DNA of 64,000 nucleotides from Promethearchaeati archaeon SRVP18_Atabeyarchaeia-1 (GCA_037308085.1 CP147779.1:352001-416000), one strand, 5' to 3'. Numbered from the stretch's first letter, positions 4,608 through 33,498 are shown. The notes: generated from the letters alone by a model not told the origin. A program made the numbers and translations.

Positions 4608-4749
4608 TGCGGCGCTCGGGATTTTCACCCTGGAGAGCTGGCATTCCAGCATGGGGATTTGAACCCGAGTATCCACCCTCGACCAGCGTTAAAGCCGAGG
4701 TTTGAGGCTTGGAAGGCCTCAGTCCTAGACCAGACTAGACCAGCGCCGC
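4608..4749 (-). tRNA. tRNA-Gly(TCC) with two BHB introns (45/46: 4671-4701; 59/60: 4622-4657)
   Basis: Removing both introns gives a 75-nt cloverleaf: acceptor GCGGCGC/GCGCCGC, anticodon arm GAGGC-CT TCC AA-GCCTC, T arm TCGGG-TTCAAAT-CCCGA. Confidence 0.93.
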
Positions 4750-4884
4750 AAAGCTCACAGTTATTGAACTCTCTTCATGTTTTTGCTTCTTAAGTTTTTC
4801 TCTGATCCCTAGATTGTTCGCCCCTATCCTAAAGTTGTGACGCTCTGGTCGATAGCGAAAAGAAAGAACTAAGAAGTAAGTAGA

Positions 4885-5051
4885 TGGTGCGCCGACCGGG
4901 ACTTTCATTCCGCATGGCAGTCCCCATGCCGGTTTTTGAACCCGGGTTGTGCCGACATGCTGATCTTCCTGGGAGATCAGTGTTATCGGCGTGGCAGGCC
5001 AATGTCTTAGACCATTCCAGATCCCTAATTGGTTGACTGGACCATCGGCGC
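4885..5051 (-). tRNA. tRNA-Gly(GCC) with three BHB introns (17/17a: 5015-5034; 44/45: 4949-4984; 59/60: 4902-4934), CCA encoded
   Basis: Spliced product of 78 nt: GCGCCGA/TCGGCGC acceptor, TTGGC-CT GCC AC-GCCGA, CCGGG-TTCAAAT-CCCGG. Central helices CCAG/CTGG, GCCG/CGGC and TTCA/TGAA each flanked by 3-nt bulges. Confidence 0.93.
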
Positions 5052-5145
5052 ACGCACTTCCTATTGGAGGAAGAATTCTAGTTAAGAATTATTTAAATGC
5101 TTTGTATCAAAAGTCTATGTGTATCCGTATCGTCCAAAGTAATAA

Positions 5146-6108
5146 GTGATTATCATGGCTGACGCAACTCCGAGGGAGTTGGCCCAGAAGTTCGGCTACT
5201 CTACTTACCTCGTCGAACGGTATGTCGAATTATTCGGTTTGGATAATACCCTAAGGCTTCTCGAAGCTAATGAGATGGGATTGAAGAGATGCATTAGGAT
5301 AAACACACTTCGCGTGCAAACCGACAATCTGCTACAGAGGTTGGAGCGCAAGGGTTTTAAACTTGGGAGAATAGGATGGGTTCCTTATGGTTTTCGCGTT
5401 CTCGAAGAAAGGTTCCCGCTTGGATCGACTCCTGAATTCATGATGGGGTACTACTACGTCCAAGATGCTGCTTCTATGCTTCCCGCTTATGTCCTGGCGC
5501 CTGGGCCAAATGATTGCGTCGTTGATTTGGGCGCGGCCCCTGGTGGCAAAACCACCCAACTTGCGCAGATCATGGGGAACAGGGGAGTCATCGTTGCAGT
5601 CGATCTCAGCCGTGAGAGGATGAAGTCTCTCCGGTCAAACCTTTCAAGGTGTGGGGTTGCCAACGTCATCGCTTACAGAATGGATGGAAAGGATTTGCCA
5701 AGCCTAGATCTGACAATTAACAAGATTCTTCTTGACGCCCCCTGCTCTTGCGATGGCGTAATCCCCGTCGATCCCTCAAGAAAGAAGAGCAGAACCATCG
5801 AGGACATAAAATTCTGTTCTATGATACAGAGAAAACTTGTCGTTAGTGCCATTAGAAGCCTTCAACCTAAGGGAGAGATGGTTTATTCTACTTGCAGCAC
5901 TGCACCTGAGGAGAACGAGTTTATCATTGCAGACGCAATACGTGAATTTGACGTCGAAGTGATGGATACTGGTCTGGACTTCGGAGATGAAGGACTTCGG
6001 GAGGCGTTTGGAGTGAAACTTCCAGACGAGCTACGACTGGCCAGGCGGTTCTATCCACATAAACATGGAGTTGAAGGTTTTTTCCTCTGTAAACTAAGGA
6101 AGAGGTAA
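5146..6108 (+). CDS. RsmB/NOP2-family RNA m5C methyltransferase
   Basis: QDAASM, DLGAAPGGKT, LLDAPCS and YSTCS..PEENE motifs. Confidence 0.92.
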   Translation: MIIMADATPRELAQKFGYSTYLVERYVELFGLDNTLRLLEANEMGLKRCIRINTLRVQTDNLLQRLERKGFKLGRIGWVPYGFRVLEERFPLGSTPEFMMGYYYVQDAASMLPAYVLAPGPNDCVVDLGAAPGGKTTQLAQIMGNRGVIVAVDLSRERMKSLRSNLSRCGVANVIAYRMDGKDLPSLDLTINKILLDAPCSCDGVIPVDPSRKKSRTIEDIKFCSMIQRKLVVSAIRSLQPKGEMVYSTCSTAPEENEFIIADAIREFDVEVMDTGLDFGDEGLREAFGVKLPDELRLARRFYPHKHGVEGFFLCKLRKR

Positions 6109-6117
6109 GGCAATAGA

Positions 6118-6666
6118 ATGTCGGCCATAGAATTCGGATCGATCTCAGTAGATGAGAGAGCAACTATAATGGAGAGCATTGATACCCTCCTGGGCAAAGA
6201 TGTAGCTTCGAACGTCATTGGTCGGCTCGAGATCGTAGTCGCCCGAGGTAAGCGAACCGAGCTCTTCCTTGTGCCCGCGGAAGTTATGAATGTCTTCAAG
6301 AGAACGCGGAACAGACGTAATCCCTACTGCCTGGGCATCTATCTCGGGGATCTCAAGAATGATGATCTATTGCTAAGCATTGAAGGAATCACATTATGTT
6401 CACCTTACACCGAGAAGAAGGTCAAAGTCTCAGACAAAGGCGAACAATCTGTCCTATATGGAAGGGACATCTCGCGTGCCCTAGTTGATGATTACCCCAG
6501 TTCTATCACGAAAGGAGATAGAGTTGTAGTGGTCAACAGGCTTGGGGAGCCATTGGCTCTTGGGAAGGCGCTCATAGATGGCGATAAGTTCAGGAATAGT
6601 GACGTGAGCCTCTGCGTGTTAGAGAATATTCTTGATAGAGGTTGGTATCTCAGAAAAGGCAAGTAA
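6118..6666 (+). CDS. NIP7-like PUA-domain ribosome biogenesis protein
   Basis: LYGRDI, GD.VVV.N..GE.LALG and C-terminal DRGWYLRKG; follows the NOP2 gene as usual. Confidence 0.8.
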   Translation: MSAIEFGSISVDERATIMESIDTLLGKDVASNVIGRLEIVVARGKRTELFLVPAEVMNVFKRTRNRRNPYCLGIYLGDLKNDDLLLSIEGITLCSPYTEKKVKVSDKGEQSVLYGRDISRALVDDYPSSITKGDRVVVVNRLGEPLALGKALIDGDKFRNSDVSLCVLENILDRGWYLRKGK

Positions 6667-6807
6667 TGGGGGTCTCAACGAGGCTTCCTCCTTGTTCCCC
6701 AGAAGACTAAGTGAGAGGTTTGCGTGACACTACATTTAAATTCAAGTAGGGTGACGAGTGTTCTCCACCTAATCAGCACATGCTTCAAAGACTTGGTGAT
6801 CAGGCTC

Positions 6808-7560
6808 TTGGTAAAGCAACAGACTGACTCTGGAAGCGAATCTGCAGCAGAGCGGAACGACGCCATAAAGGTAGGCGACTTTTTGCTTGTCGATTACATT
6901 GGGAGAGTCAAGGACACTGGAAACCTCTTCGACTTGACTGTTGAAGAAGTTGCTAAGAAAGAGAAGGTATACCGCGAGGACGAAGCTTACGGACCTAGGC
7001 TCATAGTAATCGGCGAGGGGCTAATGCTCAAAGGCTTTGACGACGCGGTAACTTCGATGAAAGTCGGTGAAAGCAAGACGATCGAGTTACCACCCGAAAA
7101 GGCATTCGGTCTAAGAGATTCGAGCAAGGTAAAGGTTTACCCAGTTTCGGCTTTCAAAAAGAGTGACGTCAGACCGTATGTGGGTGCAAGAGTCACAGTC
7201 GAAGGTAAGACGGGATTTGTTCAAAGCGCTGGGGGTGGCAGAGTTAGAGTCGACTTCAATCCCGTACTTGCTGGGAAGACACTTGTATATGAAATCACGG
7301 TCAGGAAGAAGATCCTAGACGAAAATGAGAAGCTTAATGAGCTAATCAAGCGCCGAATCAGAGGCGCTGAGACCTCCAAGTTCCAGATGAATAAGGAAGG
7401 CGAAATCGTTTCAGTTATCATGCCCAAGGAGACATATCTCGTTGATGGAGTTCAACTAGCCAAAACTATGATCGGTAGAGACATATTGAAGAACATTGAA
7501 GGCGTGAATTCGGTCAGATTCATTGAGGTTTTTGACAAGGAGACATTCAAGCTCAAGTAG
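6808..7560 (+). CDS. Long-type FKBP peptidyl-prolyl isomerase (SlyD-like)
   Basis: GDFLLVDY.G, LFD.T, PPEKAFG and VDFNP.LAGKTL motifs; TTG start at 6808 after a GGTGA SD. Confidence 0.9.
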   Translation: MVKQQTDSGSESAAERNDAIKVGDFLLVDYIGRVKDTGNLFDLTVEEVAKKEKVYREDEAYGPRLIVIGEGLMLKGFDDAVTSMKVGESKTIELPPEKAFGLRDSSKVKVYPVSAFKKSDVRPYVGARVTVEGKTGFVQSAGGGRVRVDFNPVLAGKTLVYEITVRKKILDENEKLNELIKRRIRGAETSKFQMNKEGEIVSVIMPKETYLVDGVQLAKTMIGRDILKNIEGVNSVRFIEVFDKETFKLK

Positions 7561-8002
7561 CTGTAACTCTTCTCAGTTTACATAGGGTGAGTTGCTCATT
7601 ATTCTCACACTTACCTGACAGCCTCTCAACAACCTCTTCGATCCTACATTTGTCGCCCTCATGGAGCCCGAGCGGGTTGCAGTCTTTTGCCTTGTCGCAT
7701 TCAAGGTGAGCGCATTTCTTCGGCTTGTAGGTTATTGAGGAGCCAGGAAAACATGACCTCGAATCCAGTAGAGCCAAGATCGGCGCTTCCTTCACCTCGA
7801 CCAGCGTAACTCCTCCTTCATGAAGGTCACATTGATGAACAATGCCCCTCGACTTTGTCACTTCGTAGACTCTGCCCGGTTCGAGTTTCTGGCATACCTT
7901 GATGAGTTTGCACTCCATGCAGTTTTCGACAACCCCACAGTGCAAGAAGATCGATCCGGTCTTAGCTTGTTTTGTTCCTACCAATGTCAATATTGTGGAC
8001 AT
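7553..8002 (-). CDS. UPF0179-family protein
   Basis: ITLVG..AK.G..F, CxxCxxxxxC, LEPGRVYEV and C.LHEGGV motifs. Confidence 0.8.
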   Translation of the reverse strand: MSTILTLVGTKQAKTGSIFLHCGVVENCMECKLIKVCQKLEPGRVYEVTKSRGIVHQCDLHEGGVTLVEVKEAPILALLDSRSCFPGSSITYKPKKCAHLECDKAKDCNPLGLHEGDKCRIEEVVERLSGKCENNEQLTLCKLRRVTAT

Positions 8003-8086
8003 CTGGGGATCGTCTCCAAACTAGATTCTTCTGTTCGACGCCAATCGCGGAGAAACAGTTGCAGGTTCGGGCTCATTGCCCATCTT

Positions 8087-9139
8087 TCAGATCACGCCAG
8101 TGTGCTCTGCAAGTCTCCTGGCCGCCTCTTTGCTCAACCCCTTTTCGCCTAGGATTGTGTATCGCTCAGGTCTTGTCGTGTGAGCTATGTGCAGAGCCTC
8201 GATTACTACTTCGTCGTCGATTCCGAGTTCAGCGGCGGTTGTTGGCGCTCCTATGGTTTTGAGTGCCTGTCTTATCTTCATCCAGTCTCCGTCATGTAAG
8301 TGCTCCATCATAATCGTCCCGACACCGCATTGCGCGCCGTGGAGCGCCGGCTTCGGTGCTATTCGATCCAGTGCATGGCTAAACATGTGTTCCGACCCGC
8401 TAGCGGGTCTACTGCTGCCAGCTATGCACATCGATATTCCGCTTGAGATCAATGCCTCTAAGAGTAGCCTGAGAGCTGATTCAGTCCTCCCCTTGATCAA
8501 AAGAGTGTTTCTCATGACGACCGCGGCGCTTAGTTTTGCGATTGAAGCGGCATACTCCCCATAGTATTCGTTATGAAGCTTGTAGGAGAGCTTCCAGTCT
8601 TTGACAGCAGTCCAGTTGGCAATCGCGTCTCCACATCCAGCAACCAGTAGCTCGTCAGGGGCATGCATTATCACGTCGGTGTCTGCGATCACCGCCATCG
8701 GCGCTTGCGCTTTCACGGAATGAGGCTCGTCGATTCCTCTGACTGATGCTTGAGGCGATGCAATGCCGTCATGAGATGCGGTGGTCGGGATACTCACGAA
8801 CGGTATGTGCTCATTGAATGAAGACAGCTTAGCTATGTCTATGCTTCTTCCTCCGCCTACACCGAGAGCTACCGTTGCCCCCAATTCACGAATCTTCGTC
8901 TGAGCCTTGTCCACATTAGCGAGATCAGCCGCCTCAATTATGAAGACACTTACCTCATAGCCTTCATCATTAAGGGAATCTCCAACACTTCCTCCAGCGA
9001 CTTTCACGGTCGTCTTGTCAGCCACCAACAACGCCGGACCACTCAAGCCAAGCTCTTTGCAGAGCTTTCCCGCTGAAACCAGTACATTCTGGCCAATCAC
9101 TATGTGTCTCGGCAATTGTATTTGGTGAAAAGGAAGCAT
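8087..9139 (-). CDS. egsA: sn-glycerol-1-phosphate dehydrogenase
   Basis: GGGRSID, PTTASHDGIAS, SSRPASGSEH and LHG.QCG motifs. Confidence 0.95.
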   Translation of the reverse strand: MLPFHQIQLPRHIVIGQNVLVSAGKLCKELGLSGPALLVADKTTVKVAGGSVGDSLNDEGYEVSVFIIEAADLANVDKAQTKIRELGATVALGVGGGRSIDIAKLSSFNEHIPFVSIPTTASHDGIASPQASVRGIDEPHSVKAQAPMAVIADTDVIMHAPDELLVAGCGDAIANWTAVKDWKLSYKLHNEYYGEYAASIAKLSAAVVMRNTLLIKGRTESALRLLLEALISSGISMCIAGSSRPASGSEHMFSHALDRIAPKPALHGAQCGVGTIMMEHLHDGDWMKIRQALKTIGAPTTAAELGIDDEVVIEALHIAHTTRPERYTILGEKGLSKEAARRLAEHTGVI

Positions 9140-9396
9140 TCTCTGCCTTATCCTCCCTTACGGCGCCGACCTTGAAACTAAGATATGGTATTAGGCGTTG
9201 ATCCATCTATTAAGTAGTTCTATTTGACATCCTGTGCCACCATTCAACGACCGAATCACGCGACGAATTCGGTGCGAGAGAAAGCGAACTTCACTTCCTC
9301 TGCACGAAATACTTAAATATCGGTTATCTTTCATCTCAAAACATCTTCTGTATATTCTGCGTACTTCTACTTCACAAACTTTTCTCTCGTTTTGGA

Positions 9397-10089
9397 GTGT
9401 GTCAGGTGTTGACGTGGAGGAACACTAGGGACAACATACCAGATAACACGTTGAAAGGAACCACAACTGTTGCCCTAACATGCAAGGACGGCGTTGTTCT
9501 CGCAACCGACAGAAGGGCAACCATGGGATACTATGTTGCTTCCAAAACCGCTAGGAAACTCTTCAGAATAGATGAGCACCTCGCTGCCACCATCGCCGGG
9601 TCGGTTGCTGACGCGCAGAGGGTTATGGACTCTTTGCAGGCAGAGACCAATATCTTCAAAGTCAGAGTGGGTGTTCCTATGCGGGTCAAAGCGGCCGCCA
9701 ATCTTCTATCATCTATTCTTTTTGAGGCAAGACTCTTTCCGTATTTGATGGAGGCTGTCGTTGGAGGAATTGATGAAACTGGGCCTCAGCTGTATGCACT
9801 CGATCCCGTAGGCAGCTTGACTACCGAGAAATTCGTTGCAACCGGCAGTGGGGGTCCAATAGCCTATGGATTGCTGGAGGATTCGTATTCTGAAGATCTC
9901 ACCGTGAAAGATGGGATACCGTTAGTCATCAGGGCCATAAGATCGTCGATGGAGAGAGATGCTGCTTCGGGAAATGGATTCGACGTAGCGTACATCACGA
10001 AGTCAACTTATCATGAACTCTCCGAGAGCGAGATCCGGAAAGTCTCTGAAGAGCTCAATGCAAAAAAGAAGAAGGCTCACTCATCCTAG
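9397..10089 (+). CDS. psmB: Proteasome beta subunit
   Basis: Propeptide followed by KG|TTTV, ATDRRAT, GSG and RDAASG. Confidence 0.95.
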   Translation: MCQVLTWRNTRDNIPDNTLKGTTTVALTCKDGVVLATDRRATMGYYVASKTARKLFRIDEHLAATIAGSVADAQRVMDSLQAETNIFKVRVGVPMRVKAAANLLSSILFEARLFPYLMEAVVGGIDETGPQLYALDPVGSLTTEKFVATGSGGPIAYGLLEDSYSEDLTVKDGIPLVIRAIRSSMERDAASGNGFDVAYITKSTYHELSESEIRKVSEELNAKKKKAHSS

Positions 10090-10098
10090 GGTTTTTTT
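10089..10098 (+). terminator. Oligo-T archaeal terminator-like tract after psmB
   Basis: GGTTTTTTT immediately after the stop codon. Confidence 0.4.
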
Positions 10099-10152
10099 CG
10101 AAGATGAGTAGTCTAAGCAGAGAACCACGTACTAGGTCGTCAGAAGGAATGA

Positions 10153-12063
10153 ATGATGCAAACAGATGATGCGTTAAATGACATTAGGCAAACGATAGTC
10201 CAAGGACTACCAACGTCGTCTATGGTCACCAGTGTCGAATTTGAAGGACCAGAGATCGCTGTGTACTCCAAGAACCCGAAAGTCCTGCTTGAGGACGGTG
10301 GATTCGTCAAAGAGCTTGCAAAGAAGCTGAGGAAAAGAATAGTTCTGCGTTTCGATCCCAATGTTCGCACGAAGAAAGAGGATTCAGAGAAGAAGATCAG
10401 AGAGATTGTTCCAACTGAGGCGGAGATAACCAAGATATATTTTGACGAGAATGTCGGAGAAGTGGTAATAGAAGCGAAGAAGCCCGGACTTGTCATCGGT
10501 CGAAACGGCAACACGCTGGGAGAGATAACGAGGCTAACTTACTGGAGACCCTCAGTAGTTAGAACTCCACCTCTTGAATCGAGAACCGTGATGCAGATCT
10601 CGAATATCATGCAGAAGGAGAGCGAAAAACGAAAACAGATATTGAGAGAGGTCGGACAGAGGATCTACCGAATACCCGTCTTCAAGAACGACTGGATACG
10701 AATAATAGCGCTAGGTGGATTCAAAGAAGTGGGGAGAACCGCTATTCTTGTTCAGACGCAGGAGAGCTCCGTGCTGGTTGATTGTGGGGTGAACGTGGGA
10801 AGTTCAGAAAACGCGTTCCCAAAGTTATCCGTAAACGAGTTTAATGTAAACGAACTTGACGCCGTCATAATAACTCACGCTCATATCGATCACTCAGGTT
10901 ACCTGCCTTTCCTGTACAAGTATGGGTACAGGGGACCTGTCTACTGCACGAAAGCCACCAAGAATCTAATGACACTTCTTCAACTGGACTACTTGGATGT
11001 CGCAGAAAAAGAAGGGAAACTCCTGCCCTACAGTCCAAAGGATGTAAAGGAGACCGTCTTGCACACCATTACGCTGGATTACGGGGAAGTAACCGATATT
11101 TCGCCGGACATAAGACTCACGCTTCACAATGCGGGACATATTCTTGGTAGCGCCATGGCCCATCTCCATATAGGAGATGGCTTGTATAACATGGCATACA
11201 CGGGCGACTTCAAGTTCGCCAGAACACGATTGCTTGAACCAGCTAACGTCAACTTCCCGAGACTCGAGACTCTAATCATGGAATCCACTTACGGTGGACA
11301 GAACGATATAATGCCGCCAAGAAACAGGACGGAGGAACAACTCGCAAGGATCATCAGAGAGACTATTGGCAGACGCGGAAGAGTATTGCTTCCTGTGCTA
11401 GCAGTAGGGAGGGCACAGGAACTCATGATCGTCTTGGAAGAACTAATCCGTAGAAGGATCATAGATGAGGTCCCGATATACGTTGATGGAATGACCTCAG
11501 AAGCTACGGCTATACACACAACCCACCCAGAGCTATTAGCCCAAGATCTGAGAGAAAGGATTTTTCACCAGGGCCGCAACCCGTTTCTGGCAGAGTACTT
11601 TGTCAAGGTTGAAAGCGGCGTCGCCAGGCCCGAGATAGCTACAGGAGAACCATGCATCATAATAGCAGCATCGGGCATGTTGACTGGGGGTCCAAGTGTG
11701 GAGTACTTCAGGCTAATGGCAAGCGATGAGAAGAACTGTATGATATTCGTGAGTTACCAAGTTGAAGGAACTCTGGGCCGGAGAGTTCAGAAAGGATGGC
11801 ATGAGATTCCTCTTCCACTCAGGGATGGAAGAACTGAAGTAGTCAAGGTCAACATGAGGGTTGAGACAGTCGAGGGTTTCTCGGGGCACTCAGATCGCAA
11901 GCAGCTTCTTGCCTATGTCCGTCAGGTAACACCAAGACCTGAGAGGATAATCCTATGCCACGGAGAGAGCAGCAAATGCTCAAACTTGGCTTCGGCAATA
12001 CATAATCAGTCGAGAATAGAAACCAAGGTTCCTCAGAACCTTGAGGCAATACGACTAAGATAG
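10153..12063 (+). CDS. Beta-CASP ribonuclease aCPSF1 (FttA)
   Basis: Two N-terminal KH domains, THAHIDH, GHILG, GFSGHSD and CHGE; follows psmB as usual. Confidence 0.95.
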   Translation: MMQTDDALNDIRQTIVQGLPTSSMVTSVEFEGPEIAVYSKNPKVLLEDGGFVKELAKKLRKRIVLRFDPNVRTKKEDSEKKIREIVPTEAEITKIYFDENVGEVVIEAKKPGLVIGRNGNTLGEITRLTYWRPSVVRTPPLESRTVMQISNIMQKESEKRKQILREVGQRIYRIPVFKNDWIRIIALGGFKEVGRTAILVQTQESSVLVDCGVNVGSSENAFPKLSVNEFNVNELDAVIITHAHIDHSGYLPFLYKYGYRGPVYCTKATKNLMTLLQLDYLDVAEKEGKLLPYSPKDVKETVLHTITLDYGEVTDISPDIRLTLHNAGHILGSAMAHLHIGDGLYNMAYTGDFKFARTRLLEPANVNFPRLETLIMESTYGGQNDIMPPRNRTEEQLARIIRETIGRRGRVLLPVLAVGRAQELMIVLEELIRRRIIDEVPIYVDGMTSEATAIHTTHPELLAQDLRERIFHQGRNPFLAEYFVKVESGVARPEIATGEPCIIIAASGMLTGGPSVEYFRLMASDEKNCMIFVSYQVEGTLGRRVQKGWHEIPLPLRDGRTEVVKVNMRVETVEGFSGHSDRKQLLAYVRQVTPRPERIILCHGESSKCSNLASAIHNQSRIETKVPQNLEAIRLR

Positions 12064-12087
12064 GAAGCCAGTCAAACCCGAAATTCG

Positions 12088-12510
12088 TTAGGGTTGCGAT
12101 GTACTCTTTTTATAGATTTTGACGAAAGGCGGTGTTACCACAATATAGTCTTGCCCCAGCTGTGCAATATCGCCACCGATAGTTCTACATACACCCCTCA
12201 GCTGGTCGACAACTCTTCTAAGTTCCCGATTCTGCCCGTACTGCATTCTACCGATATACGCAATCACTATATTGCCCCTCTCCAGCTCGCCCGAAACCTG
12301 CTGGATATTCGACAGGCTTTCAAGATCGACTGACTTGATGTAAATCACATCGGATTCATCTTGATTCACTAGGTCCTTACCCGTCTCGTCTTCTTCGAGC
12401 ACACCAACCTTCTTCTTCAACTCCTCGAGGTCGGTCAACTCCGAGTCTGCCGTGCTCTTCTCACCGTTCTTTTCTTCTCTTCTGCCTCTTAGAAAACGAG
12501 GTAAGGGCAC
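12088..12510 (-). CDS. sepF: Cell-division protein SepF
   Basis: GNIVIA, L.G.C..IGGDIAQ.G..YIVVTP..VKI motifs. GTG start at 12510 preferred because a TATA-like box lies at 12561-12575. Confidence 0.85.
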   Translation of the reverse strand: MPLPRFLRGRREEKNGEKSTADSELTDLEELKKKVGVLEEDETGKDLVNQDESDVIYIKSVDLESLSNIQQVSGELERGNIVIAYIGRMQYGQNRELRRVVDQLRGVCRTIGGDIAQLGQDYIVVTPPFVKIYKKSTSQP

Positions 12511-12591
12511 TAGTAGCCTAACCCCCACGTTCCACTGTGTTTGACCTATGGTCATGCAGCTATTATAACCTTTTCATAAGCAGGCAGCAGG

Positions 12592-13618: not shown

Positions 13619-13624
13619 CTTTGA

Positions 13625-13810: not shown

Positions 13811-13922
13811 GATCGTGTACGGTTTAGCAGTATTTATTAGGTGTACAAGATCACAAAGCCAGTGCACACCTCAGAAGAACATTGGACTCTGACGATTGGA
13901 ACCAGAGCAGCAGAATTCTTGT

Positions 13923-14061
13923 GGGCCGGTAGTTTAGTTTGGAAGAATGCCACGTTGGCATCGTGGAGATCCTCCTTCCGAAAAACAGAAGGAGACCACA
14001 AGTCGCGAGTTCAAATCCCGCTTGCAGTCGCTGGCGAGGGAAATTCTCGCCCGGTCCACCA
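13923..14061 (+). tRNA. tRNA-Ala(GGC) with two BHB introns (45/46: 13969-14001; 59/60: 14016-14044), CCA encoded
   Basis: Acceptor GGGCCGG/CCGGTCC with the G3.U70 Ala identity pair; CCACG-TT GGC AT-CGTGG; GCGAG-TTCAAAT-CTCGC after splicing. Confidence 0.93.
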
Positions 14062-14153: not shown

Positions 14154-14350
14154 TGGTGGGCGAGGCCGGATTTGAACCGGCGATTCGGCGCTAAAGGTAT
14201 ACCCGTTTAGCTCCACCGCCGTGTCTACCCAGAGAGTATTTAGATGGCAGTCACGTTGCTGTCTCAGTGCCCAGTTACTCTCCTCAGGGCGGTATCATGA
14301 CCATCCAGAGGTCATCACAGCAGGTGAAGCCTAATCTAGACCACCCGCCC
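14154..14350 (-). tRNA. tRNA-Val(GAC) with three BHB introns (17/18: 14303-14333; 34/35: 14225-14284; 46/47: 14184-14212), CCA encoded
   Basis: Spliced 77-nt cloverleaf: GGGCGGG/CTCGCCC, CCGCC-CT G^AC AC-GGCGG, GCCGG-TTCAAAT-CCGGC. Confidence 0.9.
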
Positions 14351-15027: not shown

Positions 15028-15062
15028 ATGAAGCACTACGATTTTGGGTTCAATTCCGAAGA

Positions 15063-15104: not shown

Positions 15105-15276
15105 GCCGCCGTAGCTTAGCCCGGGAGAAATCTTCAGATTCAACCGACAGCGCCGGTCAAGTGGAGAGGATGTCACATCCTCACGTTGGGCGAAACTGAA
15201 GATCCGGTTGTCGCAGGAGGATACTCAGAGAGGGTCGTCTGGTATCCTGCGAGTTCAAATCCCGCCGGCGGCACCA
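15105..15276 (+). tRNA. tRNA-Phe(GAA) with three BHB introns (22/23: 15128-15148; 30/31: 15157-15194; 53/54: 15218-15253), CCA encoded
   Basis: Spliced 77 nt: GCCGCCG/CGGCGGC, CCGGA-CT GAA GA-TCCGG, GCAGG-TTCAAAT-CCCGC (one A.C mismatch). Confidence 0.9.
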
Positions 15277-24572: not shown

Positions 24573-24584
24573 GAAGAATATGAG

Positions 24585-25181: not shown

Positions 25182-25211
25182 GCCTTAACTGCGACACACA
25201 GGAGGTAATCT

Positions 25212-25667: not shown

Positions 25668-25673
25668 ACGTAA

Positions 25674-26279
25674 TTGGCTAGAGGTCCAAGGTACAGAGTT
25701 CCTTTCCGCAGAAGGAGAGAAGGGAAGACCGACTACTACCTTAGGCAGAAACTGCTGCGGTCACGCAAACCGAGAGTAGTAGTCAGGAAAACCTTGAAGA
25801 GTATGATCGTGCAGGTGACGCAGGCAAAACCGGAAGGGGATTTCGTGCTTGCCTCGGCCTTCTCCAAGGAACTTCGAAAGAGCGGTTGGCTAGGTGGGAG
25901 TGGCAACACACCCGCTGCTTACCTCACAGGCTACCTAGCAGGTGTGAGGGCCTCAAAAAAGGGTGTTAAAGAGGCAGTCCTTGACATAGGACTCAATGCT
26001 CCGAGCAACGGATCAAGGATCTTTGCTGCGCTCAAGGGATTTGTGGATGCAGGAATCATGGTTAACCATGATAAAAAGATACTGCCTTCAGAACAACGGA
26101 TCAAGGGAGAACACATATCTAGTTATGCAAAAGGATTGGCTGAAAAGAATCCTGAATACTACCAGAAGAGGTTCTCCGACTACTTGAAGAGGGGGCTAGA
26201 TCCACAGCGTTTGCCGAAGCACTTCAGCGAAGTCAAGGAAAAGATTGGCCCGTCAGGAGGAAAACGAATTGAGTCGTGA
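25674..26279 (+). CDS. rpl18: 50S ribosomal protein uL18
   Basis: [10 protein letters not shown] and NTPAAYLTG. Confidence 0.97.
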
Positions 26280-26934
26280 GCGATCACCTCGAGAAAGGGA
26301 AGCCCGGCAAAGGGAGACTGAAGAGTGGGCTCCTAGAACTAGGATAGGAAAACTCGTCAAAGAAGGCCGTATCACTACAATTGAGGATATTTTCAAGTCA
26401 TGTGAGATTATTAGAGAATCGGAAATAGTGGATACGCTGGTCCAGAATCTCGAAGAAGAAGTAATAGACATCAACTTGGTTCAGAAGCAGACCGAATCTG
26501 GTGAGAAGTCGAAGTTCAAGGCAACGGTAATAGTGGGTAATGGAAGTGGCTTGGTCGGGTTAGGAGAAGGAAAGGCAAAGGAAGTGGGCCCAGCGATAAA
26601 GAAGGCTGTTAAGCAGGCTAAGTTGAACATCATCCCTGTTCGATGCGGGTGTGGATCCTGGGAATGCAATTGCGGCGACATCCACTCTTTGCCATTCAAG
26701 ATTGGAGGAGAATCCGGAAGTGTGCGCATTACGCTTGTTCCAGCCCCAAAGGGAGTAGGCCTTGCTGTCGCAGACGTGCCCAAAACGGTGCTTCGCTTAG
26801 CGGGCGTCAAGGACGTCTGGTCCTATGCAAAGGGTCACACACGTTGCACAGTCAACTTCGCAAAAGCGACCTTTAATGCACTGAAGAGAACTTACTCTAT
26901 AGTTTCACCAAAGGATTGGGCAGGGGGAATATAG
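26269..26934 (+). CDS. rps5: 30S ribosomal protein uS5
   Basis: W.PRT..G, GCGSWEC.C and PAPKG.GL; TTG start at 26269 after AGGAGG. Confidence 0.97.
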
Positions 26935-26937
26935 GAA

Positions 26938-27420
26938 ATGAGCGAAGCTGGTCCGAGATTGCTAGTCCTGCGGCTCAGAGGAGACGTCGACGTGAGGGAT
27001 GAAATCAGACAGACACTGAAAATGCTTAAGTTGCACAAGGTCAACCACGCCACTTTAGTAGAGCATAGTGAGAGCTACTTAGGTATGCTGCAGAAAGTCA
27101 AAGACTATGCGACGTGGGGAGAAGTAAGCGTCGCTACGTTGGAGAAGCTTCTAGTGAAGAGGGGCAGAGTGGCAGGGAATGAACCCCTTAACGATAAGTA
27201 TGTGACTAGTAACTCAAAATTCGGCTCTGTAAAGAAATTCACTGAAGCCCTTGCTACGTCCAAGGCTTCCGTCAAAGATCTTCGTGGTCTAAAACCAGTT
27301 TTCCGGCTTCATCCGCCGAGAGGTGGGTTTGACTGGAAGAAGAAGCATTCTTTCAAGGAAGGCGGAGAACTTGGCTATAGGGGAAAGGATATCAACAGGT
27401 TACTGGAAAAGATGATCTAG
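26938..27420 (+). CDS. rpl30: 50S ribosomal protein uL30
   Basis: GML.KVKDY.TWGE and FRLHPPRGG. Confidence 0.96.
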   Translation: MSEAGPRLLVLRLRGDVDVRDEIRQTLKMLKLHKVNHATLVEHSESYLGMLQKVKDYATWGEVSVATLEKLLVKRGRVAGNEPLNDKYVTSNSKFGSVKKFTEALATSKASVKDLRGLKPVFRLHPPRGGFDWKKKHSFKEGGELGYRGKDINRLLEKMI

Positions 27421-27457
27421 AGAAAACACATCTGTGAAGAGGAATGGTGTTCCAACA

Positions 27458-27892
27458 TTGCCGCCGAGATTCAGGAGAAAAGTAAGGAGACTACGCGGCT
27501 CAAGAACATGTGGCTGGGGTAGAGTAGCGCAGCACAGAGGATCAGGGCACCGAGGGGGATACGGCAACGCGGGTGGCCACAAACACATGTGGAGCAGGGT
27601 CAATGTAGAGACTCCAGGCTACTTCGGGAAGAAGGGATTCAGGCCAAGGAAATTCATCGTCCGTCCAAGAACGATTGATCTTGAAGGAATATCTCAGGCG
27701 CTGGAGGGAATACCTAAGAAGAGCGAGGGGACTGAGAAGAAGATGAAGATCAACATAGTCGAGTTAGGCTATGAGAAAGTGCTTGGGCGAGGCAGGATCG
27801 GTAAACCCATAAATGTCGAAGCGAGAAGCTTCAGCAAAATTGCAAAGGAGAAGATAGAGTCAGCCGGAGGAAAAGCAACAGTAGTGGCTTAA
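27458..27892 (+). CDS. rpl15: 50S ribosomal protein uL15
   Basis: RGSRTCGWG, RGG.G.AG and FGKKGF. Confidence 0.96.
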   Translation: MPPRFRRKVRRLRGSRTCGWGRVAQHRGSGHRGGYGNAGGHKHMWSRVNVETPGYFGKKGFRPRKFIVRPRTIDLEGISQALEGIPKKSEGTEKKMKINIVELGYEKVLGRGRIGKPINVEARSFSKIAKEKIESAGGKATVVA

Positions 27893-27953
27893 AAGTAATC
27901 TCATTTGGGAACTTTTCTTCGACAACCAGAGCAGCAAGGATGGTAGCCAGATA

Positions 27954-29402
27954 ATGGTACGCTTCATAGACGTATTTGGATCCATGGCTAGGGTGATTCC
28001 CACTGTAAAATCACCTGACAGAAAAGTTCAGTTTAGAGAGAAACTTGGGTGGACTGTAATTGTACTTGTTATTTTCTTGCTCATGAGTAACATCCCGCTT
28101 TATGGGATTGCCCCAGGCACACAGACGACTGACTATTTGTATTGGATGCGCGTGATACTGGCTTCTACTCATGGAACATTGATGGAACTGGGAATTGGAC
28201 CCATAGTCACGGCGGGTCTGATAATGCAGCTTCTCGCTGGTTCCAAGATAATCAACATAGATCTCTCGAACACTGAAGACAGGTCAAAATTCACTGCATC
28301 CCAGAAGTCTCTTGCAATGCTGATGACCGGTATCCAAGCTTTAGCCTACATTGTGAGCGGAGCTTACGGGTCATTGGCATTAATCAGTTCGATTGTGGTG
28401 TTCCTCCAGCTCATGGTCGCTGGGCTGGTGGTCGTACTGCTTGACGAGCTGACGCAGAAGGGATGGGGGCTGGGCAGCGGAATAAGTCTTTTCATCGTTG
28501 CCAACGTAGCCCAGCAGATCCTGTGGCGCTCCTTCTCTCCAATTCGGGGAGCCGACTCGTATTATGTCGGAGCAGTGCTCGCCTCGTTCCAAGCCTTGGC
28601 CACTGGAGGTCTTCAGGCACTTGGCACGGTGTTTTGGACGAGACCCAGCGATTCCGGCAGTACCTTTGGGTTATTCGCCACAATAGCTGTCTTCGTCGTC
28701 GTAATCTACTTTGAGACCTACAGGGTCAACATACCTCTCCAATATGCGAAGTACAGAGGCTTCAGAGGCAGCTACCCCATAAAGTTGCTCTACGTATCTA
28801 ACATCCCAGTAATCTTGGTTCAATCCCTGTTTGCCACAATACTGTTCTGGGTTCAACTCGTTGCCAAGGGCAACACTGGCGGCTCAGCAAATCCTTGGCT
28901 AAACCTCCTTGGCGTCTTCAACAAGAATATTGATGCAAGCGGAAATATCACCTACCAGCCTATAGGGGGTCTCATATACTACATTACGCCGCCTGTCAAC
29001 GGCCTCGTTAGTGTAATCCGGGATCCGATCCAGGCCATCGTCTACTTGTCGCTGATGGTCTTCCTTTGCGCAGGATTTGCAAGGATCTGGGTCGAGTTGT
29101 CAGGTATCGCACCTAGGGACATTGCCAGCCAGTTACACAGCTCCGGGATGCAGATTCCTGGCTTCAGACGATCGCCTGCCATTATGGAGCAAGTGCTTCA
29201 AAGATACATCCCAGTAGTCGCCCTTCTTGGCGGGATGATTGTGGGTCTGCTAGCCGCGTTGGCAGACTTCTCTGGCGCTCTAGGAACAGGTATGGGAGTA
29301 CTGCTGACGGTTGGCATAATTTACCAGCTATATCAGACCATTGCCCAGGAGCAGCTCGCTGATATGCATCCTGCTATTCGCGGGATGCTGGGTGTCAGTT
29401 AG
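27954..29402 (+). CDS. secY: Preprotein translocase SecY/Sec61alpha
   Basis: GTLMELGIGPIVT, GLGSGISLFI, YPIKLLY.SNIP and IPGFRR. Confidence 0.97.
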   Translation: MVRFIDVFGSMARVIPTVKSPDRKVQFREKLGWTVIVLVIFLLMSNIPLYGIAPGTQTTDYLYWMRVILASTHGTLMELGIGPIVTAGLIMQLLAGSKIINIDLSNTEDRSKFTASQKSLAMLMTGIQALAYIVSGAYGSLALISSIVVFLQLMVAGLVVVLLDELTQKGWGLGSGISLFIVANVAQQILWRSFSPIRGADSYYVGAVLASFQALATGGLQALGTVFWTRPSDSGSTFGLFATIAVFVVVIYFETYRVNIPLQYAKYRGFRGSYPIKLLYVSNIPVILVQSLFATILFWVQLVAKGNTGGSANPWLNLLGVFNKNIDASGNITYQPIGGLIYYITPPVNGLVSVIRDPIQAIVYLSLMVFLCAGFARIWVELSGIAPRDIASQLHSSGMQIPGFRRSPAIMEQVLQRYIPVVALLGGMIVGLLAALADFSGALGTGMGVLLTVGIIYQLYQTIAQEQLADMHPAIRGMLGVS

Positions 29403-29463
29403 GTAAGACGAAATGTGACAAGTGAGCGGACAAGGAGAATGAATTAGAACAGACGGAAAGGAT

Positions 29464-30006
29464 GTGAAAATAGTGGACTTTGCGGAACTCATATTCATAC
29501 CACCGATTTCAACTCTTTTTGTTCTCCTCATATCTGTGACCATGTCGACTTTCACGGCCTTCGTTACAAGCAGGGTAACCGATCAATCCAAACTCAGAAG
29601 ATACAGAAAGGAAATAGCTGAATGGAGACAGATGATGGCCACAGCGAAGAAAACTGGCGACGAGAAACTGGCTTTGGAAGTCCGGAGGAGATCCAAAATA
29701 GTTCAGAATATGCAAAAGCAGGTTGCGACGCAAGGAATGAAGCCGACTTTGATCTTCTTCGTTCCCTTCTTGGTGATCTGGGCGATCCTCAGTGGCTTAT
29801 ACGGATCACGCATAGTGGCCTATGCTCCGTTCAATCTCAGAATCATACCACTTGTCGGACTCCTAATCTCCCCCGGTAGCCTTGGGATAAACCTCTTTGG
29901 ATGGTATCTTCTCTGCAACTTCTCAATAGGCACGATAATCAATAGGTTATTTGGTGTCAACCAAGTCGCAGGTTTATCGCCGACTGGTGGCTTTCCTAGC
30001 AGTTAG
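29464..30006 (+). CDS. EMC3/TMCO1 (DUF106) Oxa1-superfamily membrane insertase
   Basis: TM, coiled coil, MKP and TM, with W.WY.L; position after secY. Confidence 0.85.
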   Translation: MKIVDFAELIFIPPISTLFVLLISVTMSTFTAFVTSRVTDQSKLRRYRKEIAEWRQMMATAKKTGDEKLALEVRRRSKIVQNMQKQVATQGMKPTLIFFVPFLVIWAILSGLYGSRIVAYAPFNLRIIPLVGLLISPGSLGINLFGWYLLCNFSIGTIINRLFGVNQVAGLSPTGGFPSS

Positions 30007-30029
30007 AGTGAACTCGCGAGGTGCGGTCA

Positions 30030-30338
30030 ATGCCTAGACCTAGTCTAAGAACACGAACAATCAAGCGCAGGAATCTAAGAACTCCCGGTTCTAGAAGCGT
30101 CGTACACTATGATAGGCTTCTGAAGCCGAGCGATGCCAGATGTAGCTCTTGTGGCGCAATTCTGCCAGGAGTTCCAAGATTGCCTCCTTCTAAAATGGCG
30201 AATATCGGCAAAAGCAGAAAGAGACCAAACAGGCCATACGGGGGGCAGCTCTGCTCAAAATGCCTGTCATCGAAGGTAAGGGCACAAGTCTTTGAGCAAA
30301 CTAAGGTCCCTGTGAAAACAGGCAGGAAGTCGAAGTAA
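30030..30338 (+). CDS. rpl34e: 50S ribosomal protein eL34
   Basis: RTPG, C..CG..L.G and RPYGG.LC..C. Confidence 0.96.
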   Translation: MPRPSLRTRTIKRRNLRTPGSRSVVHYDRLLKPSDARCSSCGAILPGVPRLPPSKMANIGKSRKRPNRPYGGQLCSKCLSSKVRAQVFEQTKVPVKTGRKSK

Positions 30339-30468
30339 CTGGGCAGATCTAAGATGTCCCTTTGCAGGCACCCCACGTACCCCCAAGTTACTTACCGACC
30401 ATGCGACGCTTGTTCACTGGTCCTGCCTTCGCACCCGTTCTCCGCAGATTCAGCAGGAGATAATCTTA

Positions 30469-31014
30469 ATGGACTCAGGCATAGTCATAGTGATTGGAGG
30501 ATTGCATGGGACTGGCAAGAGTACTTGCGCGAGGCTGCTGGCCGAGAAGCTCAGTCTTCGGTATGTCTCTTCCGGAGGAATCTTTCGTTCGATCGCTAAT
30601 CAAAAGAAAATGACGATTGAGGAGCTTAGCAAGTACGCCGAGAAGCACCATGAGATCGATCGGGAAGTGGATTCCGAGGTGGTTCGAGCCTCGAGAGAAG
30701 GAAACATCGTTATTGAGGGGCAGATTGCGGCGGGTCTTGTCGAGGCGCCGGACATCAAAGTCTTCCTAACTGCTTCCGAGACTGTAAGGATCGACAGGTT
30801 GTCCTGTCGAGACAGGAAGAGTAAGGAAGAGTCATTAAGAGAGACAAAGTTGCGGGAAGCCAGCGAGAGGCGGAGATACATGGAAACCTACGGCATCAAT
30901 GTATCTGATCTCTCAGGCTACAATCTCGTCATAGACACATCCAAATGGTCAGCTGAAGCAGTCACAAGGATAATTGAGAGGTCCGTCGAGGAGTACCTTA
31001 AAGGAAAGGCTTAA
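30469..31014 (+). CDS. cmk: Cytidylate kinase
   Basis: GLHGTGKST, S.G.IFR and RE.SE..RY...YG. Confidence 0.92.
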   Translation: MDSGIVIVIGGLHGTGKSTCARLLAEKLSLRYVSSGGIFRSIANQKKMTIEELSKYAEKHHEIDREVDSEVVRASREGNIVIEGQIAAGLVEAPDIKVFLTASETVRIDRLSCRDRKSKEESLRETKLREASERRRYMETYGINVSDLSGYNLVIDTSKWSAEAVTRIIERSVEEYLKGKA

Positions 31015-31150
31015 AACACGACATACCCTTTCACTTGATGAACCAGCACCCTTTAGCAAGGGGGCAACGCTGAGTGCCTCTACCCATCCCGGATGACGGA
31101 CAAAGACACTGGGATGTGCAAGGCACGCGCTGCTGGAGGTGAAAGCACAC

Positions 31151-31432
31151 ATGGCAGCCATCGAAATTGGTAGAATCTGCGTTAAGACGCACGGAAGAGA
31201 AGTGGGGAGTAAGTGCGTTGTCGCTGACCTTATCGACGACAATTTCGTTCTCATAACTGGACCCAAAGATCTCAATGGAATCAAGAGGCGCAGAGTAAAT
31301 ATCAAACACATAGAAGCTACGAGCGACAAGATCAACCTGAAGAAAGGGGCCAGTGACGAAGAAGTCAAGAAGGCCTTACAGGCGGCCGGAAAACTCGAAA
31401 GCATGAACGAGAGGATCAAGATAAAGGCATAG
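31151..31432 (+). CDS. rpl14e: 50S ribosomal protein eL14
   Basis: IEIGRICVK..GRE.G and G.KRRR.N..H.E. Confidence 0.97.
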   Translation: MAAIEIGRICVKTHGREVGSKCVVADLIDDNFVLITGPKDLNGIKRRRVNIKHIEATSDKINLKKGASDEEVKKALQAAGKLESMNERIKIKA

Positions 31433-31547
31433 CTATCAAGGCTTCAACGCCCAGATAGCGTGCGTCAAATCTGACTTTTTCGTAATCTCCTCAGCTGATT
31501 TTTCGGCATGACTCATCCCCTAGATAAATAGGGAAGGGTACGTCAGT

Positions 31548-32611
31548 ATGTGTAAGGTGGTTTCAGCTATGAAAGAGTCGAAGCTTCCGTATGATGTTAA
31601 GAGAGACTTGTTGAGAAAGACTCGTGATCAAACTGACAGCAGGCATGGGTGCGATCCGTCCAAGCGCCAGATCAACGAGTATGTTAGCAAGGGCGTGATC
31701 AACCTTGACAAGCCGGCAGGGCCTACTAGCCATGAAGTCGTTGCCTGGATAAAGAAGATCTTCGGAATAGAGAAGGCCGGTCACGGTGGGACTCTAGAGC
31801 CACTCAGTGCGCACAACTCCGCATCGAGCGGTGGGGTAATCCTAGGGTGACTGGACTTCTTCCAGTGACTTTGAGCAGCGCGACTAGGCTTGTTCAGGCA
31901 ATTCTGCCTGCAGGTAAGGAATATGTCTGCGTTATGACGCTTCACGGAGATGTCCCAGAAAAGAAACTAGTTGAAGTTTGTAACGAGTTTGAAGGACCGA
32001 TCTACCAGAGGCCACCACTTAGATCTTCCGTGAAGCGCATGTCACGGATAAGGACGATATACTACCTGCAACTTCTCGAGGTGGATGTGCGGAATGTACT
32101 GATGAAAGTCGGGTGCCAAGGAGGGACGTACATAAGAAAACTCTGCCATGACATAGGGGAGGCAATTGGCTGTGGCGCCCATATGAAGGAACTGAGGAGA
32201 ACTAGGACAGGATCGTTCAAAGAGGATGAGACCATGGTTTCACTTCAGGATGTCGTTGATGCCGTTCATTTCTGGAAAGAGAATGGAAACGAAGCCTTCC
32301 TCCGTAGGTCAGTCCAGCCAATGGAGAAGACCACGGAGCATTTGCCTAGACTCGTTGTCCGTGATTCTGCCGTAGACGCATTATGCCATGGGGCTCAACT
32401 TGCAGCACCTGGCGTACTTGAGGTTCATACCGGAATAAAACAGAACGCACTAGTCGGGATTTACACTTTGAAGGAGGAGATTGTCGCGCTGGCTCGAGCG
32501 CAGCTTGACACCGAAGGCATAATGAAGGCAGATAAGGGTATAGTGGCTACGATTGAACGTGTTATCATGGAGCCCGGAGTATACCCGAAACATGAGAAGC
32601 AGGCTACTTAG
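31548..32611 (+). CDS. cbf5: H/ACA pseudouridine synthase Cbf5 (TruB family), interrupted by a 41-nt BHB intron at 31798-31838
   Basis: Two ORFs offset by 2 nt in frame. Removing 31798-31838 restores GHGGTLDPRVTG. Also LDKP.GPTSHEV, KEY, GTYIR and a PUA domain. Confidence 0.95.
31798..31838 (+). other. Pre-mRNA BHB intron in cbf5
   Basis: GGGA/TCCT outer helix, CTCT/GGGG central helix, bulges AG^A and TA^A, intron helix GCCACTC/GAGCGGT. Confidence 0.92.
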
Positions 32612-32650
32612 CTTCCCGGATCCAGAAAGTTAGCTGGAGGCCAACGAAAC

Positions 32651-33280
32651 ACGGCTGAACATTATTTCACCGCTGAACCCTCATCTGAGCTGAAGCTAGG
32701 CCTCTTGAAGGCAAGACTGCGAGGAGTAGATCTTCAGTTTCTTACGGCGAGGGGGGTGTTCTCTTACAGGAAAGTTGACAGGGGAACCATCGTACTCATC
32801 GACTCAATGGAGATACCTGAGAAAGGAAATGTTCTTGATTTGGGGTGTGGATGGGGTCCTATCGGAATAACTATTTCAGCGACTCACCCGCAAAACTGTG
32901 TCATCATGACTGACATCAACAAGAGGGCCATCTGGCTTGCCACCCAGAATGTCAGCCTCAACAAGGTCACCGCCGAGGTAAGGTGGGGCGAACTATATGA
33001 TCCTGTCGGTGATGCAAAATTCGACGCCATAATCACCAACCCACCCATTTCAGCAGGACGCAGCCTAGTAAGCAAAGCAATTGAAGAAGCAAACCACCAC
33101 CTCTCTCCCCGCGGAAGCCTGCAACTTGTGGCACGCACAAACAAAGGCGCTAAGGTCATTTCCATCATTATGGAAAACGTCTTCGGAAACGTACAGGAGA
33201 TTGAAAAGAAAAGCGGATATAGAGTCCTATGCTCACATAAGAAAGATGAAGGCAGCGAAGACAAGACTCTGGAGGCCTAA
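32651..33280 (+). CDS. RsmC-like small SAM methyltransferase; probable ACG start
   Basis: (T)AEHYFTAEP N-terminus upstream of TTG 32705; GVFS...VD.GT, LDLGCGWG and TNPP motifs. Confidence 0.88.
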   Translation, partial: TAEHYFTAEPSSELKLGLLKARLRGVDLQFLTARGVFSYRKVDRGTIVLIDSMEIPEKGNVLDLGCGWGPIGITISATHPQNCVIMTDINKRAIWLATQNVSLNKVTAEVRWGELYDPVGDAKFDAIITNPPISAGRSLVSKAIEEANHHLSPRGSLQLVARTNKGAKVISIIMENVFGNVQEIEKKSGYRVLCSHKKDEGSEDKTLEA

Positions 33281-33377
33281 GACACCTTAGCTAGAAAATG
33301 CGCACGACGCAAGCGATCCTGCAACGCACTAGCCGACACAGTTAAATGCCTACTCGAACCTTAAGAAAAACGTAAGT

Positions 33378-33498
33378 GCCGTGGTAGCCAAGTCTGGTTA
33401 AGGCGCGGGATTGGAGATCCCGTTCCCTTTTGGGAGCGTCGGTTCAAATCCGGCCCATTTCACGTGGTAAGCACACCATGTGGAGGCTAGCGGCGCCA
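33378..33498 (+). tRNA. tRNA-Ser(GGA) with a BHB intron in the acceptor stem (68/69: 33458-33490), CCA encoded
   Basis: CGGGA-TT GGA GA-TCCCG with a long variable arm. The 3' acceptor strand CCA^CGGC-G-CCA pairs with GCCGTGG only after intron removal. Confidence 0.92.

Follow-up and report, generated by a model that had tools for sequence, protein, structure and literature searches.

Bulge-helix-bulge introns predicted in six tRNA genes and in cbf5 of the Asgard archaeon Atabeyarchaeia-1

Interrupted tRNA genes and cbf5 in the window

The DNA analysed here, called the window, is a stretch of 64,000 nucleotides (nt) corresponding to bases 352001-416000 of the 2,808,651-base pair (bp) single-contig genome of Promethearchaeati archaeon SRVP18_Atabeyarchaeia-1 (Atabeyarchaeia-1). 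It carries six tRNA genes, each interrupted by one to three inserts, and a cbf5 gene interrupted by a single insert. The inserts are very probably genuine introns of the splicing endonuclease, flanked by bulge-helix-bulge (BHB) motifs. An earlier reading of the window, made from its sequence alone (the sequence-only reading), had placed six tRNA genes with 14 introns of 20-60 nt at these loci and a BHB intron in cbf5; both were found, the spliced tRNAs being called by ARAGORN and the cbf5 intron being 41 nt long with a strict BHB. The intron positions within the tRNAs also agreed, none of the 14 lying at 37/38, except that the only intron assigned to 44/45 is placed here at 45/46. The trinucleotide CCA is encoded in five of the six tRNA genes.

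The features are listed below with coordinates counted from the first base of the window. For each intron the number of pairs in the 4-bp central helix is followed by the lengths of the outer and inner helices; published calls are those of Valentin-Alvarado et al. 2024 (PMC11291895).

4608-4749, minus strand: tRNA-Gly(TCC) gene, three exons; spliced form of 75 nt called Gly(tcc) by ARAGORN; ends at the discriminator A with no encoded CCA; ends as published
4671-4701, minus strand: Gly-TCC intron 1, 45/46, 31 nt; central 3/4 (one U-U), outer 2 bp, inner 8 bp; as in the published call
4622-4657, minus strand: Gly-TCC intron 2, 59/60, 36 nt; strict BHB, central 4/4, outer 6 bp, inner 3 bp
4885-5051, minus strand: tRNA-Gly(GCC) gene, four exons, encoded CCA; three introns needed for a cloverleaf, one (tRNAscan-SE) or two (R2DT) published
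5015-5034, minus strand: Gly-GCC intron 1, D-loop 17/17a, 20 nt; central CCAG/CTGG 4/4, weak flanking helices of 1 bp each
4949-4984, minus strand: Gly-GCC intron 2, 45/46, 36 nt; central 4/4, outer 0, inner 3 bp
4902-4934, minus strand: Gly-GCC intron 3, 59/60, 33 nt; central 4/4, outer 5 bp, inner 0; the published tRNAscan-SE intron
13923-14061, plus strand: tRNA-Ala(GGC) gene, three exons, encoded CCA, G3:U70
13969-14001, plus strand: Ala-GGC intron 1, 45/46, 33 nt; central 4/4, outer 0, inner 2 bp; published end 1 nt shorter
14016-14044, plus strand: Ala-GGC intron 2, 59/60, 29 nt; central 3/4, outer 5 bp, inner 1 bp; missing in the orthologue of sister genome G012
14154-14350, minus strand: tRNA-Val(GAC) gene, four exons, encoded CCA; body almost identical to those of the genome's own Val-TAC and Val-CAC; no G-1, A73 present
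14303-14333, minus strand: Val-GAC intron 1, D-loop 17/18, 31 nt; strict BHB, central 4/4, outer 5 bp, inner 3 bp; missing in the G012 orthologue
14225-14284, minus strand: Val-GAC intron 2, within the anticodon at 34/35, 60 nt; relaxed form, central 4/4, no outer helix, inner 8 bp
14184-14212, minus strand: Val-GAC intron 3, 46/47, 29 nt; central 4/4, outer 1 bp, inner 6 bp; the published third intron
15105-15276, plus strand: tRNA-Phe(GAA) gene, four exons, encoded CCA
15128-15148, plus strand: Phe-GAA intron 1, D-arm 22/23, 21 nt; weakest motif, central 3/4, outer 1 bp, inner 0; missed by tRNAscan-SE
15157-15194, plus strand: Phe-GAA intron 2, anticodon stem 30/31, 38 nt; strict BHB, central 4/4, outer 3 bp, inner 3 bp
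15218-15253, plus strand: Phe-GAA intron 3, 53/54, 36 nt; central 4/4, outer 0, inner 7 bp
33378-33498, plus strand: tRNA-Ser(GGA) gene, two exons, encoded CCA; spliced form with a perfect 7-bp acceptor and G73, intronless call with two acceptor mismatches
33458-33490, plus strand: Ser-GGA intron, acceptor stem 68/69, 33 nt; strict BHB, central 4/4, outer 2 bp, inner 10 bp
31548-31797, plus strand: cbf5 exon 1 (DKCLD domain and start of TruB_N); its last base, G, is the first of the catalytic Asp codon
31798-31838, plus strand: cbf5 pre-mRNA BHB intron, 41 nt; central CUCU/GGGG 4/4, bulges AG|A and UA|A, outer 5 bp, inner 3 bp
31839-32611, plus strand: cbf5 exon 2; begins with the AT of the Asp codon and encodes the remainder of TruB_N, followed by TruB_C_2 and PUA

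Exon models of the tRNAs were obtained by enumerating loose BHB candidates at each locus, splicing all compatible sets and scoring the resulting cloverleaves; at the Val locus explicit exon models were compared. Run on the unspliced window, ARAGORN made a single call, Ser-GGA at 33378-33463, with a wrong 3' end. The Rfam tRNA model at its gathering threshold also returned Ser-GGA alone, with two acceptor mismatches and a wrong 3' end; sub-threshold matches for Ala and Gly-TCC appeared under relaxed settings, and in the whole genome the model scored above threshold at only 13 places. ARAGORN with its intron option labelled Gly-TCC as Trp and Phe as Met, and the published tRNAscan-SE annotation finds 11 of the 14 introns and gives Val-GAC as His, so that the expectation of the sequence-only reading that standard callers would miss or mislabel these genes was borne out. 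A relaxed scan for T-arm and acceptor pairs found no further tRNA in the window; the same scan missed Ala and Ser and is therefore not exhaustive.

Evidence that the inserts are BHB introns

All six spliced products were called full-length by ARAGORN with the anticodons given in the sequence-only reading, and the identity elements are as expected: Ala has G3:U70, Ser G73 and Val A73. At 11 of the 14 junctions the central helix is complete, with a 3-nt bulge on either side and the register required for cutting; this was so at 2.2% of the controls, which were 1474 positions of the same length in the same genes (binomial P ~3e-13, border sliding allowed for); at the remaining three junctions the motif is relaxed, with three of four central pairs and the correct register. 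When at least three flanking pairs were required in addition to the complete central helix, 9/14 junctions and 0.34% of the controls qualified. Both flanking helices reach at least 2 bp at five junctions, four of these with a complete central helix; the others lack one flanking helix or have only 1 bp of it. Such weak flanking helices are the relaxed forms expected of a broad-specificity EndA. For Ser, an exhaustive one-intron search that ignored the motif gave the best cloverleaf at exactly the strict-BHB junction.

Orthologous tRNA genes from two sister genomes of the same family were aligned independently of the motif. Exons were 96% identical and introns 58-63% identical (five genes measured); Phe was not matched by the identity script and showed the same exon/intron pattern in its alignment. 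Genome G012 lacks Ala intron 2 and Val intron 1, the gaps coinciding exactly with the predicted borders. The Val 34/35 junction CTG|...|ACAC is conserved in the three genomes, and the Phe 22/23 insert is present in all three with a diverged interior, its central helix reading 4/4 in the alignment of the G012 orthologue. The sequence-only reading had named intact intronless copies as part of what would refute it; none of the six mature sequences occurs in one uninterrupted piece elsewhere in the genome.

Two features of intron interiors were noticed and set aside. The Phe D-arm intron (AUCUUCAG) is complementary to the anticodon arm of its gene; this is not conserved in the two orthologues and was put down to chance. 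Val intron 1 contains a C/D-box-like GUGAUGA, which was rejected because the orthologue lacks it.

Several observations weigh against the inserts all being EndA substrates. The Gly-TCC 45/46, Ala 59/60 and Phe 22/23 junctions are relaxed, the outer or inner helix is missing at several junctions, and some borders can slide by 1-3 nt with no change in the product. Removal of the Phe 22/23 insert by EndA, given its motif, is uncertain. Moreover, because a loose BHB rule had been used to pre-filter the candidates, the BHB statistic involves some circularity, from which the evidence of orthologues and cloverleaves is free.

In Supplementary Data 4 of PMC11291895 tRNAscan-SE gives the locus at 14154-14350 as a His-GTG, possible pseudogene, with three introns and 51.7 bits. 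This model was rejected: it requires a 3-nt micro-exon which is absent as a conserved feature in the orthologues, and it includes an intron with zero BHB pairing (0/4 central pairs and no flanking pairs). Splicing at CUG|ACAC yields instead a clean cloverleaf with acceptor stem GGGCGGG, A73 and no G-1, whose exons are 93-96% identical across the three genomes; its D-arm resembles those of Val-TAC and Val-CAC of the same genome, and its T-arm is that of Val-TAC. The locus is thus tRNA-Val(GAC), as labelled in the sequence-only reading, and the reference annotation is wrong.

Low tRNAscan-SE scores, 46 bits for Gly-GCC besides the 51.7 bits at 14154-14350, could be taken to mean that some loci, the latter above all, are decaying pseudogenes whose working counterparts lie elsewhere. 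We consider this very improbable: the scores are low because of mis-splicing, the genome has no other copy of these isoacceptors, Val-GAC is conserved and folds cleanly once spliced, and the true tRNA-His is a separate gene (see below). Still less credible is that the inserts are artefacts of assembly or curation. The complete 2.81-Mbp genome was indeed assembled from soil metagenomes and curated by hand, but its authors validated the assemblies with Nanopore and PacBio reads (PMC11291895), two further genomes of the family have the same genes interrupted at matching positions, and the cbf5 intron recurs in dozens of unrelated assemblies.

More weight attaches to the possibility that the weak D-arm inserts, Phe 22/23 and Gly-GCC 17/17a, are not EndA introns and are either retained as expansions or removed in another way. 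Both have low BHB scores and were not called by tRNAscan-SE in the published table, and a 2026 preprint (bioRxiv 10.64898/2026.10.13.758758) reports that missed inserts concentrate in the D-arm. On the other hand, the central-helix partners of both inserts are kept in the three genomes while their interiors diverge (CCAG/CTGG in Gly-GCC, CGGG with ACCG or CCCG in Phe), a normal-sized D-arm does not form if the insert is retained, and BHB enrichment is reported for missed inserts too in the same preprint. The D-loop intron of Val is missing in a sister genome, which marks such inserts as dispensable additions. Overall we regard this alternative as unlikely for the two inserts, and splicing by EndA as the better account of them.

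Published annotation, missing tRNA genes and the splicing machinery

Atabeyarchaeia-1 belongs to the Asgard archaea, as the sequence-only reading had supposed: its SecY is 82% identical to that of Promethearchaeati archaeon LC30, the nearest named relative, LC30 being the database name for Atabeyarchaeia used by Valentin-Alvarado et al. 2024 (PMC11291895). The genome-wide tRNA coordinates given by ARAGORN (231487-231577, 235646-235740, 254689-254786 and others) are identical to those of Supplementary Data 4 in that paper. Its authors reported introns, often non-canonical and multiple, in 92-95% of the tRNA genes of Atabeyarchaeia-1 and two other genomes, with a per-gene table in which only 2 of 40 tRNA genes are intronless. 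Since the same genome and the same six loci appear there, the central tRNA finding is already known, and has been since 2024. The intron expansion claimed for this Asgard lineage in the sequence-only reading is therefore real, and the novelty which that reading implied for the tRNA part does not hold. The preprint mentioned above is a new census extending the known tRNA introns of Atabeyarchaeia and Freyarchaeia; the worked example in its Figure 2a is the Phe-GAA gene of the window, including the 21-nt D-arm insert.

What is new here is modest: the Val/His correction, the tRNA genes missing from the published list and the broad, position-fixed distribution of the cbf5 intron, together with the genes for two EndA paralogues, catalytic and non-catalytic, and for RtcB. 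For the six loci of the window, PMC11291895 lists 11 of the 14 introns by tRNAscan-SE and 13 by the R2DT count, giving one or two for Gly-GCC where three are needed and His-GTG at 14154-14350. Its table of 40 tRNAs contains no His-GTG other than this one, and no Leu-GAG, Ser-CGA or second Cys-GCA such as were found here, and its main text makes no mention of cbf5. The reference annotation of the type genome thus has one tRNA mislabelled and several omitted, including tRNA-His; tRNA-repertoire or codon-usage analyses based on it would therefore go wrong.

The missing genes other than Ser-CGA came from a scan of the whole genome for T-arm and acceptor pairs, which recovered 34 of the 40 published loci. 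Genes for Asp, Ile, initiator Met, Thr-GGT and Thr-CGT were not located in the analysis. A separate tRNA-His(GTG) with G-1 and C73 lies at genome positions 464249-464421 (minus strand), adjoining tRNA-Ala-TGC; it has three introns, in the D-loop, at the canonical 37/38 and at 59/60. Further unpublished candidates were noted: a Leu-GAG at genome 259535-259744 (plus strand), with four predicted introns and a long variable arm, and a Cys-GCA at genome 1599741-1599895 (minus strand), with U73, CCA and three introns, the spliced forms of both being called by ARAGORN; and a Ser-CGA at about genome 637148-637350 (minus strand), with three inserts and the anticodon loop CUCGAGA, read by eye only. A 244-nt stretch at genome 36840-37083 (plus strand), also flagged by the scan, has a perfect acceptor (GGGAGCG/CGCTCCC), A73, CCA and an intact T-arm; the exon-model solver, allowed up to four introns, gave no convincing cloverleaf for it.

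The enzymes that the inserts would require are encoded in the genome. RtcB was found (583 bits), as the sequence-only reading had predicted, and there are two EndA paralogues (two PF01974 genes). The first, EndA alpha (209 amino acids; genome 202592-203221, minus strand), is most like the catalytic subunit of Aeropyrum pernix (3P1Z_B; E = 5e-46, 175 residues aligned). It keeps the Tyr/His/Lys catalytic positions, of which the His is mutated in 3AJV, and in the Crenarchaea-specific loop it keeps the Lys (VRKPK, against VEKPR in 3P1Z_B). According to PMC3241643 and PMC5829648, a specific loop with a conserved Lys confers the broad substrate range. EndA beta (241 amino acids; genome 623841-624566, plus strand) has both EndA domains and Thr at the catalytic His position. 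The heteromeric, broad-specificity EndA proposed in the sequence-only reading is consistent with this pair of one catalytic and one non-catalytic paralogue.

EndA of Atabeyarchaeia-1 is most likely an (alpha-beta)2 heterotetramer, its assembly and specificity being predicted from the sequences, and the preprint (bioRxiv 10.64898/2026.10.13.758758) infers this form for most Asgard genomes. The catalytic residues of the alpha subunit and the loop Lys are shared with the (alpha-beta)2 enzyme of A. pernix (PDB 3P1Z, 3AJV; Hirata et al. 2011, PMC3241643). Unlike in A. pernix, the second paralogue is closer to the EndA of Methanopyrus and Methanocaldococcus than to crenarchaeal beta subunits; it is extended at the N-terminus and has a long insert of acidic/lysine-rich sequence.

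In the mechanism that we propose, folding of the pre-tRNA would bring each exon-intron pair into a structure with two 3-nt bulges separated by a 4-bp helix, strict at 11 junctions and relaxed at 3. EndA, acting as (alpha-beta)2 with one catalytic and one non-catalytic paralogue, would cut after the second base of each bulge, and RtcB would then join the exons to give Gly-TCC, Gly-GCC, Ala-GGC, Val-GAC, Phe-GAA and Ser-GGA. The 41-nt intron of the cbf5 mRNA would be excised by these enzymes too, and both the reading frame and the codon of the catalytic Asp (G|AT) would thereby be rebuilt. Cutting and rejoining of the RNAs, the order in which introns are removed and the quaternary structure of EndA are predictions from the genome. 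The supply of tRNA and the modification of rRNA would depend on EndA and RtcB; it is in this sense of dependence, and not as demonstrated regulation, that the gating proposed in the sequence-only reading is to be taken. Translation in Atabeyarchaeia-1 would then rely almost wholly on tRNA splicing, which is striking in a relative of the eukaryotic ancestor, though already in print.

Multiple non-canonical tRNA introns are reported for Thermoproteales (Sugahara et al. 2008 and Fujishima et al. 2010, as cited in later papers), where their spread by transposition has been proposed. Atabeyarchaeia-1 resembles Thermoproteales in the variety of positions at which BHB introns occur, in their number, which reaches three or more in a gene, and in the two-subunit EndA predicted for it. 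It differs in its phylum, Asgard rather than Thermoproteota, and in the published density of 92-95% of tRNA genes against ~70%.

The cbf5 intron in Asgard and other archaea

Unspliced, cbf5 consists of two open reading frames (ORFs) in different frames, one at 31548-31850 (DKCLD) and the other at 31847-32611 (TruB_N/TruB_C_2/PUA). In-silico removal of 31798-31838 joins them into a single frame with the TruB catalytic motif, the junction reading CTA G|...|AT CCT. The intron lies between bases 1 and 2 of the codon (G|AT) for the catalytic Asp, which is where Yokobori et al. 2009 (PMC2738675) place the crenarchaeal cbf5 intron. The strict BHB of the intron in the window is the minimum-free-energy fold (z = -2.5). 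In Desulfurococcales and Sulfolobales too the cbf5 intron is short, has a BHB motif and usually shifts the frame (Watanabe et al. 2002; Yokobori et al. 2009, PMC2738675).

In the window cbf5 was the only mRNA intron that could be established, in a search that short exons would escape. Two candidates, L14/L24 and L34e with its neighbour, had been considered as split genes; by family search they are adjacent separate genes. The other candidates of the window were judged from coordinates only. Genome-wide bridging of ORFs gave ~2,900 matches; a decoy pairing rule gave more, so that no conclusion was drawn. The ribosomal protein L24 of the window (PF16906; 20372-20848, plus strand) has 114 residues over the 82-position profile, that is, an internal insertion relative to the family.

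The occurrence of the intron was followed by searching 121 Asgard genomes with cbf5 exon 2 and inspecting 40 loci. An intron of 26-41 nt was present at the same site in all inspected members of five Asgard families: Atabeyarchaeaceae, two families of Jordarchaeia, Borrarchaeum and one 'Heimdallarchaeota' metagenome-assembled genome (MAG), these names being taken from identical sequences in named records. In these families the central helix is complete at the G|AY junction only. The intron was absent in 21 loci from nine other Asgard families. A further sample of 80 named cbf5 loci across Archaea added ~14 Bathyarchaeia, a Culexmicrobium (Culexarchaeia) MAG, a 'Nitrososphaerota' MAG and a Thermoproteota single-cell genome to the intron-bearing set, the intron being absent in the sampled Hadarchaeota, methanogens, Thermococcus, Thor-, Odin- and Wukongarchaeia. 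Altogether 39 of 118 scorable loci from other genomes have an intron at this site.

For every intron-bearing relative, G|AY was the only one of four junction offsets tested to give a complete or near-complete helix (4/4, except 3/4 at two loci). The helix partners covary, exon wobble positions changing with intron bases: the pairing is CUCU/GGGG here and CACU/AGUG in family f18.

Two reviews confine the cbf5 intron to a small group of Crenarchaeota, and our literature search found no paper combining cbf5, Asgard and intron. In contrast to the crenarchaeal intron of those reviews, the one described here is present in Atabeyarchaeia-1, an Asgard archaeon, in Jordarchaeia and Borrarchaeum, in many Bathyarchaeia and in one MAG each of 'Heimdallarchaeota' and Culexarchaeia. 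Its distribution is far wider than the reviews state, and it is always in the same codon phase. The genomes and metatranscriptomes now available make it possible to test whether the intron was inherited from an ancient source or a BHB-compatible site was captured repeatedly.

In a tree built from 120 Cbf5 sequences, the presence of the intron needs 9 changes, against 33 with shuffled labels, showing strong clustering. The well-supported branches force only 2 changes, which is compatible with one origin or several. It is conceivable, and we put it forward tentatively as the less probable case, that this is one ancient mRNA intron, older than the divergence of Thermoproteota (TACK) and Asgard and later lost many times. 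If so, the archaeal line leading to eukaryotes would already have had protein-gene introns spliced by the tRNA machinery, and the same class would have spread into further mRNAs in intron-rich Asgard lines.

Some cbf5 loci seen in these searches were unusual in other respects. In four Asgard genomes (G042, G095, G073 and G104) the cbf5 match is split (query residues 1-103 and ~85-253) within one frame of 836-856 amino acids, which suggests an intein or another large in-frame insertion. In genus g13 of Asgard family f12 (L033, L042-L045) cbf5 is intronless and its frame is only ~290-305 amino acids long; the N-terminus is shortened or diverged, the DKCLD part matching poorly (residues 54-83 only in L033). 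Archaeal-type cbf5 genes also occurred in records titled 'Anaerolineales bacterium' and 'Candidatus Sulfotelmatobacter sp.' (L098 and L134), which are probably mis-binned archaeal contigs in bacterial MAGs.

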